From assembly GCA_951406725.2 (NCBI GenBank), contig OX597817.1, positions 69,068,001 through 69,132,000 of the forward strand: a stretch of 64,000 nucleotides of DNA, in the 5' to 3' direction. The position numbers and the translations under genes are program-made. This document shows, one piece after another, positions 28,017 through 34,272 of this stretch. The stretch is from Octopus vulgaris (lineage: Eukaryota). The notes beneath the pieces are model-generated. The model saw only the letters and a list, made by a program, of their open reading frames with translations. It ran no database searches and had not been told where the DNA came from. Each line of letters starts with the position of its first letter. The stretch's first letter is position 1.

Positions 28017-28269
28017 AGTTTCAGTTGAACACTGGGACTGATATAATCAACTTGAAACTTGCTAGCCTTGTGTCAAAATTTGAAACTTGTATTAATGCTT
28101 GAAATTTTGTTTTGACATTATTGTTCACTTTTCTGTCTTGTTTTGTTTTATTCTTTGTACTGTGTGTGAACTTTCAGTTTTCAGTTGTGTCTTTCTCTAC
28201 TTCACTTGATGTCCCCTCTTTTACTCATTTCCAACAAGTTTTTGCATATCTGAGCCCTGGATGCAATGA

Positions 28270-28425
28270 ATCATCATCATCATCCTCATCATCGTTTAAC
28301 GTCCACTTTCCATGCTGGCATGGGTTGGACGATTTGACTTGGGACTGGTGAGCCAGATGGCTGCACCAGGCAAATGGCTGCACCTGGCAAATGGCTGCGC
28401 CAGGCAAAGATGGCTGCACCAGGCT
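28270..28425 (-). mobile_element. 5'-truncated family D tail with four tandem ~17-bp ATGGCTGCACCAGGCAA units
   Basis: ATCATCATC...TTTAACGTCCACTTTCCATGCTGGCATGGGTTGGACGATTTGAC followed by the repeated unit. Confidence 0.85.
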
Positions 28426-28430
28426 ATTTT

Positions 28431-28537
28431 AAAAATATGGAATGCTTCACAAATTTGTGCATCATCCTTGCACAGGGGGCCATGCTAATCTTCTCTGTAT
28501 CATTCCAATTTTAGAATATGTACCGCCGTAGCAGTAC
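28431..28537 (-). pseudogene. RNU6: Full-length U6 snRNA retrocopy
   Basis: Minus strand GTACTGCTACGGCGGTACATATTCTAAAATTGGAATGATACAGAGAAGATTAGCATGGCCCCCTGTGCAAGGATGATGCACAAATTTGTGAAGCATTCCATATTTTT; ACAGAGA box and AGC triad intact, several CpG-decay substitutions, no TATA box near -30. Confidence 0.95.
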
Positions 28538-28611
28538 AATGACCTTCATAAACTGTAATGTTGTCTCATGGTAGTTTATGTCATAAATGGTTGCATGTGA
28601 TGATGATGATG

Positions 28612-28910
28612 ATCATCATCATCATCATCATCACCATCTTTTAACATCTATTTTCCATACTGGCATAGGTTGGATGATTTGACAAACCAGAAGACAGCAC
28701 TGGGCTTCACTGTCTACTTTGGCATGATTTTTATGGCTATATGCCCTTCCTAATACCAACCACCTTACAGAGTGGACTAAGTGCTTTTCACATAGCACCA
28801 GCACTGGCAAGTTCTGTTTTAGCAAGGTTTTTACAGCTGGATGCTCTTCCTAGTGCCAGCCACTTTTCAAAGTGACTTGGGTGCTTTTCATGAGGTACAA
28901 GTACCTGGCA
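28612..28910 (-). mobile_element. Family D retroposon
   Basis: (ATC)n tail; GCCCTTCCTAATACCAACCAC motif occurs twice (second degenerate). Confidence 0.75.
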
Positions 28911-30772: not shown

Positions 30773-31718
30773 TGTTTACCACCCCCCACCTCTGCTTGAT
30801 AACCAGTTCAGCAAAACTGACTCGTAGGATAAATACCAGACTTAAAAGTAATAATAAATACTGGGGTCAATTTGTTCAACAAAAACCCTTCAATGTGGTG
30901 TCCCATTGTGGCTGCAGTCCAATGACTGAAACAAGCAAAAGCTAAATGAAGTATGTACATACATGCTCAGACGCATAGTCAACATTGACCAACAGAAATC
31001 CCATGTAATAAATGCGTTTAACAAATAGGTAATTCAGCTGGTTGAATAACTTAATGTCTATCATCAAAACCATTGAAGACCCATTATGCATCTGAGAGTA
31101 CATTAAGCAGAGTCCTACACTTTGTCTTTTTTGATTGTTTTCTTTTTTGAAGCTGAAATTTGGTGGTGTATGATAAACCAAGGTGATAACTGTCATGAAA
31201 TAACAAGTAGACATTGATAAAATGCAATATCTTCACTAGAATTAATTTTCATGGATATATGTGACATAACTGAATAGAGACCAGCATCGTAGGAGGATAA
31301 GTATTGCCATAACAAAGTGATTTTACATCAAAATATCATGGAGTTTATTTTATTCATTTATTCCATATCACAGTTCATGAACAACATTATTGTTGGCTAA
31401 AGTTTTCTCCAATAGGTAAATAGCTCATTCTCTGCATTTCTGATGGTGAGTGTTTGTAATTCATCACAGAACAAATATCACAAAGGACTTCAATTGAAAG
31501 CACCCCACCCCCACAACAGACATGTGCATGTGAGCACACATGCACACACATACACACACACCATGGCCTTCTTTCAGTTTCCATTTACCAAGTAAGGAAT
31601 CATTTTCCTCATGGCCAGATATGTTTGGTTGTTGCATCCCAATGCACACCCACACATGGCCGCCCAACTGCTGAAACCATTAACCAATTGGGTTTTGAGG
31701 TGCTGGAACACCCTGTCG

Positions 31719-32832
31719 ACAGCCTTCCTATATCCCTTCCTATCCTAGAGAGTTCCTGAGTTAACTAGATAATAAAAATTTCATGGAAGATGATTACAGA
31801 GAATCACAAAAGAGTAACTTACAGATCAAGCACAGGATCCAACAAACCACAGGAATACACTGCTCTGGTGAGATCTCTACAGCTGGATGCCCTTCCTAAT
31901 GACAACCCCTTTACAGAATGGTTGCTTTTTTTTTACCTTGTGACACTAGCACTAGTAAGGTCACTATATCTGATGAATAGACAGGATGGTTATTGCTGAA
32001 ATATCATTGATCATAGGCCTGTTGAGTCAAGACTGACCTGGGGCTAAACAACAACATCAAAGAAAGGTGTATTAGATAATGCAGTCTTATTTCTCTCACC
32101 TTAACATGTACTCACTGGCTGTAAGCAATGACTTCACTCAAGAGTAACATTTGCTTGCAGTCCACTGAAAAAGAGTGCCCAAACTCCCTAACATGCCTTG
32201 ATATGCTATGTGGGTTTAATTTGCTTCAAGATTTTTTTTTTAATATAAATATATCCAGCTTGTTTGTTTTGCAAGTATAGAAGAATAGACATTAATGATG
32301 ATGATAATGCACATACCTGTAGCAAGCTAATTAAAAGTGTATTCAAATAGAGGGTGATTGTAACAAAAATTTAATAAAAAATACAAATTTGGGAAGGAGA
32401 ATTTTAAGGACTAACTTTATATTCATTATATTGACAAGTAAGGGAGACAACTTCACTGAACTTGATAGTGATGAAGAAGTCACTAATGGTGTTTTTATAA
32501 GAAATAAACCTCATTGTCCATTTTTGCTTTTCATCATTCCAGGCCTGGTCAATAGAATATCTATTCTTCTCTTGGTCCATCCTTGTGTATATCAGCTATG
32601 TTGTACTGTAATAAATGTCACAAGAAACCCATGGAGAGCATCCCATTCCCCAGAAATTGGGAAGAGTTGAGCAAAAAGCTTGTAATTATTTCTCATGGAG
32701 ATTCTGTTATTTCATCCACAGGAACTGTCCATAAACAGACCAGAGTACAGAACAGTATAGAACATAAATTAAGAAACTAAATAAAGATAGATATATAAAA
32801 AGTTCAGTGTGTTTAATAAATATCATCACATC

Positions 32833-32864
<32 letters not shown>

Positions 32865-32967
32865 CTGTGTTGGTCTCCCATCACTGCTTTACAATCCTAT
32901 GAATCTGGGTTTACTTCTCAACTTGGGTTCAGTTTTACTGCATGGCACCTTTGATTCCACTAAACAG

Positions 32968-33004
<37 letters not shown>

Positions 33005-34234
33005 TTCCTTAAGAATCTGTGTTCCATACTAGTATGGGAATTGATTTTATGTGATACATCATACAAAATGTCATGGTAGACTGATTCTAAAATATTTGTG
33101 GCTCTACAGCCCTTCCTATATCCCTTCCTATCCTAGAGAGTTCCTGAGTTAACTAGATAATAAAAATTTCATGGAAGATGATTACAGGGAATCACAAAAG
33201 AGTAACTTACAGATCAAGCACAGGATCCAACAAACCACAGGAATACACTGCTCTGGTGAGATCTCTACAGCTGGATGCCCTTCCTAATGACAACCCCTTT
33301 ACAGAATGGTTGCTTTTTTTTTTACCTTGTGACACTAGCACTAGTAAGGTCACTATATCTGATGAATAGACAGGATGGTTATTGCTGAAATATCATTGAT
33401 CATAGGCCTGTTGAGTCAAGACTGACCTGGGGCTAAACAACAACATCAAAGAAAGGTGTATTAGATAATGCAGTCTTATTTCTCTCACCTTAACATGTAC
33501 TCACTGGCTGTAAGCAATGACTTCACTCAAGAGTAACATTTGCTTGCAGTCCACTGAAAAAGAGTGCCCAAACTCCCTAACATGCCTTGATATGCTATGT
33601 GGGTTTAATTTGCTTCAAGATTTTTTTTTTAATATAAATATATCCAGCTTGTTTGTTTTGCAAGTATAGAAGAATAGACATTAATGATGATGATAATGCA
33701 CATACCTGTAGCAAGCTAATTAAAAGTGTATTCAAATAGAGGGTGATTGTAACAAAAATTTAATAAAAAATACAAATTTGGGAAGGAGAATTTTAAGGAC
33801 TAACTTTATATTCATTATATTGACAAGTAAGGGAGACAACTTCACTGAACTTGATAGTGATGAAGTCACTAATGGTGTTTTTATAAGAAATAAACCTCAT
33901 TGTCCATTTTTGCTTTTCATCATTCCAGGCCTGGTCAATAGAATATCTGTCACATTTTGGCTCAATTCTTCTCTTGGTCCATCCTTGTGTATATCAGCTA
34001 TGTTGTACTGTAATAAATGTCACAAGAAACCCATGGAGAGCATCCCATTCCCCAGAAATTGGGAAGAGTTGAGCAAAAAGCTTGTAATTATTTCTCATGG
34101 AGATTCTGTTATTTCATCCACAGGAACTGTCCATAAACAGACCAGAGTACAGAACAGTATAGAACATAAATTAAGAAACTAAATAAAGATAGATATATAA
34201 AAAGTTCAGTGTGTTTAATAAATATCATCACATC

Positions 34235-34272
<38 letters not shown>

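Follow-up and report, generated by a model that had tools for sequence, protein, structure and literature searches.

Fusions of U6 and other small RNAs to LINE tails and SINEs in the octopus genome: one locus and its genome-wide context

Copies of U6 snRNA in the octopus genome adjoin retroposons far more often than expected by chance: as a class, 70 of 95 copies on contigs C1-C3 have a same-strand retroposon start within 30 nt of the U6 3' end, compared with 108 of 3000 random anchors (3.6%). We examined one such fusion, the focal locus, in a window of 64,000 nucleotides of Octopus vulgaris DNA (the whole stretch that was analysed), together with its relatives in the assembly searched here (G000, 2.8 Gb in 227 contigs, among them C1-C3). 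We consider it fairly probable that the focal locus, a decayed U6 copy joined to the 3' end of a LINE, was inserted in one step by end-to-end template jumping. This kind of fusion is already known in vertebrates, and the focal locus is another instance of it, a single locus with no evident function. New here are the genome-wide sense 5S precursors, the full-length SINE partners and the clustering of the junctions.

The focal locus

The focal insertion unit comprises 268 bp from U6 through the linker and the LINE-derived part to the end of the tail, the flanking repeats excluded (Table 1). The earlier note on this DNA, made from the letters alone, had read here a complete minus-strand U6 copy ending in a T-run, and the Rfam search agrees: the copy, which ends in five T, matches RF00026 over model positions 1-105 of 105 (97.1 bits, E 6.6e-24), and a scan of the whole window returned nothing besides it. 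The AAAAT linker, the family D 3' end in the same orientation and the (GAT)n tail are likewise as described in that note; what had been overlooked is an array of ~17-bp tandem units at the point where the LINE sequence is truncated.

Table 1. Features of the focal locus and its surroundings, in positions of the window
Feature	Position	Strand	Basis or remark
TCATT (AATGA on the plus strand), 5' copy of the putative 5-bp target-site duplication	28538..28542	minus	exact at boundary
Full-length U6 snRNA retrocopy, five-T end, CpG-decayed	28431..28537	minus	Rfam, 97.1 bits
A-rich linker AAAAT, 5 nt	28426..28430	minus	unlike the U6 gene flank and unlike family D copies upstream of the junction
Four tandem ~17-bp family D units at the 5' truncation point	28357..28425	minus	TRF period 17, 3.9 copies
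End of the family D LINE 3' UTR, including the terminal hairpin	28293..28372	minus	94-96% identity to many genomic copies
(GAT)n tail	28270..28292	minus	sequence
TCATT, 3' copy of the putative 5-bp target-site duplication	28265..28269	minus	exact at boundary
Older, separate family D copy outside the focal unit, ~75 bp upstream	28615..28860	minus	upstream boundary approximate

The last unit of the array continues into the unique part of family D, of which the focal unit contains only ~100 bp (28372-28270). None of 29 other close D copies has such an array, and its exact tandem pattern has no match genome-wide; similar tandem units are found at the truncation points of L133 and L302. In all three loci, the units suggest repeated re-priming before the jump, and the linker, to judge from its letters, was likely untemplated.

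The U6 part is 91.7% identical to the gene copy, and five of its seven substitutions, read by eye, are CpG transitions. Seven U6 genes in a tandem cluster (G000:C1:139.42-139.43 Mb) are preceded by an octamer and a TATA box; both elements are absent upstream of the focal U6. Gene-like loci also show a second variant of the U6 sequence (L088, with L081 noted alongside the cluster), and the chimeras contain both variants, in 23 and 16 copies. U6 has no internal promoter, and the fusion products are therefore probably dead on arrival.

Elsewhere in the window, the (GAT)n tail of the older D copy is followed by (CAT)n, the two forming a 17-pair palindrome (28597-28634), and a recent direct duplication of 1.17 kb with 98% identity occupies 31716-32870 and 33103-34272.

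Family D

Close copies of family D extend upstream, in four of five measured copies through a complex UTR of 541-592 nt and then into ORF remnants. ORF2 remnants stand upstream of the D sequence in L141, L147, L151 and L154, RVT_1 and PHD domains were found in ORF remnants of genomic D copies, and many relatives of ~1,000-1,100 aa with 60-70% identity combine PF03372 with PF00078 and often also PF00628. The upstream RT/PHD remnants and the endonuclease-RT relatives together mark family D, by its sequence context, as a LINE 3' end, namely the 3' UTR of an endonuclease/RT/PHD element; the local endonuclease-like fragment gave no match in a Pfam search, and searches for a full-length element recovered none. 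The (GAT)n stretch is the short tandem-repeat 3' tail of the close D copies compared.

The insertion had previously been ascribed to an RTE-like, (GAT)n-tailed machinery. An endonuclease-RT LINE is indeed involved, but the RTE label is tentative and comes from general features: given its architecture and type of tail, we take family D to be of the RTE/RTEX type. Named reference elements were absent from the matches of the D relatives, and no clade name for the family was found in the Atlas or in the literature search. Identity of family D with RTE-2_OV is unlikely, since the 3' UTR of the latter is, in the available text of PMC9115989, mostly microsatellite, whereas the D UTR is complex.

Genome-wide survey of U6 fusions

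A 16-nt motif from the 3' end of U6 matches exactly at 411 sites in the genome (control, 0). We fetched the first 100 of these 411, all on C1-C3, and counted as a fusion any case in which a same-strand retroposon starts at most 30 nt from the U6 3' end. There were 75 such cases, or 70 of 95 when five segmental duplicates of L043 (L044-L048) are dropped; L043-L048 (G000:C1:132.42-132.53 Mb) are six copies of one chimera of U6 with a SINE A tail, at the ~20-kb spacing of a segmental duplication. Using names coined in this analysis (SINE A, B and C; T2, T3 and T4 for related LINE tails; family D), the partners in the 70 joins are the 5' end of SINE A (35), the 5' end of SINE B (4), the SINE A tail (10), T2, T3, T4 and family D (5 each) and the middle of SINE A (1). 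Of the remaining 25 matches, 8 are gene-like copies, 3 are chance occurrences of the motif, 6 belong to four loci with inverted U6 and 2 to a pair of U6 copies in tandem; among the last 6, visual inspection suggests several fusions to additional elements. Dispersed U6 copies without a partner are rare. By extrapolation, we estimate ~300 U6 chimeras genome-wide, ~20 of them with family D, to which decayed copies missed by the motif would add. Most of the annotated U6 and dispersed 5S "genes" of the octopus are probably retro-chimeras.

Repeated fusions of U6 to family D with different junctions, for which the earlier note had proposed to search, do exist: six were found besides the focal one (L030, L069, L072, L075, L083 and L120, that is, five in the census plus L030), and they differ both in the position of the junction in the UTR and in the U6 5' end. 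Family D thus recurs as a partner, but it accounts for only 5 of the 70 U6 joins, and 5S and U2 are also involved.

In 41 of the 70 chimeras, the U6 part begins at one of nt 1-12, and in 29 after nt 12; a T-run of 4-6 is present in 55, and linker bases foreign to both partners are common. In 14 of the 70, all on C1-C3, the 5' truncation falls at nt 62-68, which we take to be around the internal stem-loop, and this suggests a stop of reverse transcription or a cleavage site. Inverted U6 pairs (foldbacks) are present at L068, L112, L113 and L119, the first three having a common 3' flank and L119 another one. The U6 copy at L023:1470-1610 includes the 3' flank of the gene up to a second T-run and is either a read-through transcript or a DNA-level copy. 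At L117, L061 and L238, U6 or 5S 3' ends are joined to elements beyond the reference set, and L117 runs into RT-like sequence.

With hundreds of copies, the chimeras might be thought to form a self-propagating, U6-headed SINE family derived from one or a few master loci, and the automated repeat annotation of O. vulgaris has SINE classes "U" and "U-L1" (52,753 bp) next to a class "5S" (PMC13282606). The words "snRNA" and "chimer" do not occur in the available text of that annotation, whose repeat library may hold some of the fusions. The idea of such a family is largely refuted, and we give it hardly any weight. As many as 67 of the 70 junctions are distinct and, with the U6 5' end counted, so are all 70 structures, unlike in a SINEU-like family with a master locus; therefore, the joins reflect repeated events. 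Moreover, there are eight partner classes and two U6 gene variants, and the sole junction shared by six copies (L043-L048) has shared flanks and is a segmental duplication.

Target-site duplications

The size of the unit and the exact AATGA repeats at its ends had been reported before and both stand, but the repeat is weak and only suggestive of a target-site duplication: AATGA occurs in the window at a frequency of 0.002 per position, and a match of at least 5 bp, with a few bases of slack, is obtained for 8% of shuffled flank pairs. We scanned 86 U6 and 5S chimeras with defined ends, the focal locus left out, against 25 shuffles. Duplications of at least 12 bp around the whole unit were found in 8 of the 86 (null mean 0.96, maximum 4); the cleanest ones, of 12-17 bp, enclose L008, L017, L033 and L236, and some others are AT-rich or far from the tail. 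A duplication of at least 8 bp is absent in 74 of the 86, and (TA)n is present on both flanks in 13, versus 3.9 expected. An earlier, looser scan had been near the null (duplications of at least 8 bp in 8 of 67, versus 5.45 expected) and had missed two cases. None of the six other D chimeras has a convincing duplication (L069 shows an AT-rich match only, and the end of L075 is undefined), and no clear pattern of duplication is seen among standalone D copies (5 of 27 at 5 bp or longer, three of these being TA microsatellite). Words of the focal locus are shared by 20 of 24 sequencing runs (four organisms, nine studies), which we did not count as evidence.

The two parts could also have arrived independently, with a U6 retrocopy already in place when a LINE fragment or SINE entered at its T-rich 3' end. 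Copies of family D are dense around the focal locus, with another one ~75 bp upstream, the 5-bp repeat could be due to chance, and in 7 of 67 chimeras the tail is followed by an imperfect, AT-rich repeat of the U6 3' end (a raw count without a null). Nevertheless, we regard separate insertions as quite improbable, given the fixed orientation and position of the partner in the 70 of 95 copies compared with the 3.6% background, the clean 12-17 bp duplications that span both parts in the four loci named above, and the rarity of partnerless dispersed U6 copies. For the focal locus, we infer a one-step insertion.

Other small RNAs and multipart chimeras

The acceptor is not specific to U6 because 5S (26 of 30) and U2 (8 of 30) are fused as well. 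The 5S 3' motif has 436 matches, of which 59 are dispersed on C1-C3; among the first 30 of these 59, there are 26 sense fusions to the same partners as those of U6 (L224, a microsatellite match, was left out of the count). In 24 of these 26, a 3' trailer of at least 6 nt extends beyond the motif, some of the trailers matching those of cluster genes, and the heads that carry trailers are presumably precursor transcripts. The acceptor ends in a pyrimidine in 20 of the 26. U2 was traced by a 3'-end motif, ranked Rfam matches being biased (all 30 of 30 gene-like). This motif has 93 matches, with 8 fusions among the first 30 and 3 among the 20 of those on C1-C3; L267 and L268 (chance or microsatellite matches) were left out. 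The counts in this analysis also leave out L300, a duplicate of L299. On the same chromosomes, fusions of U6 and 5S are about twenty-fold more numerous than those of U2, in counts made with motifs that differ between the RNAs.

Some chimeras consist of more than two parts. L004 (G000:C7, around 9559300-9559560) joins a full U6, a full-model 5.8S rRNA and SINE B, is confirmed by Rfam and has a 6-bp flanking repeat. L064:1409-1600 contains a tRNA copy, a 5'-truncated U6 and the 5' part of a second U6, the tRNA-U6 part being confirmed by Rfam. In L193/L194 (G000:C25:5354954-5355202), two tandem 5S copies with trailers are followed by retroelement sequence that resembles a Penelope-type RT. In L287 and L022, a SINE C head is joined directly to a T3 or T2 LINE tail, possibly by tail exchange or as a proto-SINE.

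Positions of the junctions

U6 joins its partner at a SINE 5' end in 39 of the 70 chimeras and at the foot of a LINE-tail hairpin in 25. Four short tails share one fold, a stem with a G-G mismatch followed by a second hairpin. T3 is a LINE 3' end, its genomic copies having LINE sequence upstream; the C-terminus encoded there, which we take to be CR1-like from its appearance, had no match in a Pfam search. Among 29 ordinary T3 copies, 23 have upstream LINE sequence and 6, by eye, start at the hairpin foot, 2 of these 6 being chimeras with 5S and SINE C. In the six chimeras of U6 or 5S with T3, the junction is always at the foot, versus the 6 of 29 ordinary copies (Fisher p 0.0006). For SINE A, joins in the middle of the body are seen in 2 of 58 chimeras versus 8 of 30 standalone copies (p 0.002). 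Inspecting the tail junction by eye, we also considered a ribozyme there and rejected it, the fold consisting of two hairpins and the only Rfam match in the window being U6.

Origin of the fusions

The concentration of joins at SINE 5' ends and hairpin feet favours template jumping, in our view the probable route, over RNA ligation by RtcB, which we consider unlikely. At the focal locus, reverse transcription would have been primed at the (GAT)n tail, and ~100 nt would have been copied, as far as a 5' break in the RNA. Three rounds of slipping back and recopying ~17 nt would have produced the tandem units, and untemplated bases may then have been added as the linker. On running off the end of the truncated LINE RNA, the enzyme would have jumped end to end onto the U-rich 3' end of U6 and copied through to U6 nucleotide 1, with repair yielding the 5-bp duplication. 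The same jump could be made genome-wide by several LINE machineries, the trigger being arrival at the 5' end of a SINE or at the foot of the hairpin in a LINE tail. Abundant small RNAs would be taken up, mostly Pol III transcripts (U6, and 5S together with its trailer) and less often U2, 5.8S or tRNA. The R2 enzyme has been shown in vitro to add bases without a template, mainly purines (PMC8594491), and to jump end to end onto templates that can pair, by their 3' end, with the overhang (PMC8594491 and PMC8857657, both as described in the available text). With such purine overhangs, acceptors that have a terminal U or C would be at an advantage.

The ligation route holds that RtcB joins U6, with its 2',3'-cyclic phosphate, to cleaved LINE or SINE RNA with a 5'-OH, after which the joint RNA is retrotransposed; clustered junctions would then result from nuclease cuts 5' of the protected tail hairpin or in the SINE leader. 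According to the available text of PMC6789731, such ligation has been demonstrated for human U6/L1, and the RtcB reaction depends on a donor with a cyclic phosphate and a partner with a 5'-OH, a 5'-triphosphate failing. Taken by itself, the focal locus, with its complete U6, five T and internal truncation of the LINE, is explained just as well by ligation; 55 of 70 chimeras have T-runs of 4-6, like mammalian ligation products, and D junction positions vary as they do in L1. Nucleases that leave cyclic phosphates produce pyrimidine ends, so the ends of the 20 of 26 fused 5S copies are expected under ligation, too. However, ligation is a poor fit to the 5S trailers, to U2, 5.8S and tRNA acceptors and to the three-part chimeras, leaves the focal tandem units unexplained, and has to contend with the common linker bases foreign to both partners. 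Furthermore, the SINE 5' ends in the 39 joins would bear triphosphates if they are Pol III starts. A Pol III origin of the SINEs is indicated by A- and B-box-like motifs, seen by eye only; the Rfam tRNA model had no match to SINE B or SINE C at E<=0.01. Template jumping, then, is the reading we prefer.

Implications

There is still debate over whether template switching or RNA ligation gives rise to small-RNA/retroposon chimeras. A single genome with several hundred independent, clustered junctions (U6, 5S, U2, 5.8S and tRNA; several LINE machineries) provides a dataset and specific substrates for testing both routes. A broader interpretation, which we put forward tentatively and at somewhat short of even chances, is that SINE birth is in progress here: LINE RTs would release the template at the hairpin foot and jump to nearby small-RNA 3' ends (U6, nascent 5S, tRNA-like SINE heads), giving rise to hundreds of independent proto-SINEs without involvement of RtcB. 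If this is true, the 5S-tail and SINE C-tail proto-SINEs, with an internal promoter and without a terminator, could found new families, and the chimeras would directly record, as a series of fossils, the acquisition of LINE tails by SINEs, a step long proposed and so far unobserved.

Comparison with known systems

The sources compared here are taken to the extent of their available text. The earlier note knew of no such fusion in cephalopods, and its claim of novelty holds in part: no cephalopod report was found in the open literature (subscription papers, Repbase and Dfam lay outside the search), and neither Petrosino 2022 (PMC9115989) nor PMC11203168, as available, describes such fusions, but U6-RTEX and U6-SINE chimeras are known in lizard and platypus. 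According to Doucet 2015 (PMC4476161), the fusion partners of U6 include L2 and Mon-1 in platypus; in Anolis, they include L1, L2, RTEX-2 and AnolisSINE2. The word "invertebrate" does not occur in that paper.

Mammalian U6/L1 chimeras (Buzdin 2002; Moldovan 2019, PMC6789731) resemble those of the octopus in having sense U6 with 4-6 T on a 5'-truncated LINE 3' end and in resulting from recurrent independent events. Their abundance is of a similar order, with 253 candidate human L1 chimeras, 70.9% of them with U6 (Law and Burns, PMC11838501), compared with the ~300 estimated here. In contrast to the mammalian case, most octopus chimeras have a full-length SINE or a ~50-nt LINE tail as partner, many lack the 5' end of U6 (29 of 70 start after nt 12), and duplications are missing or short. 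The octopus 5S copies are in sense with the 3' end preserved; in human 5S/L1 chimeras, antisense orientation and truncation are frequent. The octopus junctions are clustered, whereas human chimeras show no preferred L1 site.

The platypus and Anolis chimeras (PMC4476161) share with the octopus ones the involvement of non-L1, stringent LINEs and their SINEs and of truncated U6, and the duplications in platypus are short as well (1-9 bp); template switching was proposed there. That survey covers vertebrates only, with 40 and 16 copies, and its account includes neither a 5S, U2 and 5.8S series nor clustering at SINE 5' ends or tail hairpins. The tripartite chimeric retrogenes of Magnaporthe (PMC2104539) consist of three fused RNAs and have been read as products of double template jumps, like L004 and L064, but are fungal and made of other RNAs than the octopus chimeras.

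Template switching has been proposed for SINE assembly in general (Kojima 2015 and 2018; PMC4494074, PMC5786205). SINE3, with a 5S head, and SINEU, with snRNA heads, have the same combination of a small-RNA head and a LINE-derived tail, for which a template-switch origin was proposed (PMC4494074); these are amplified families with a shared structure, whereas the octopus chimeras are one-off insertions.
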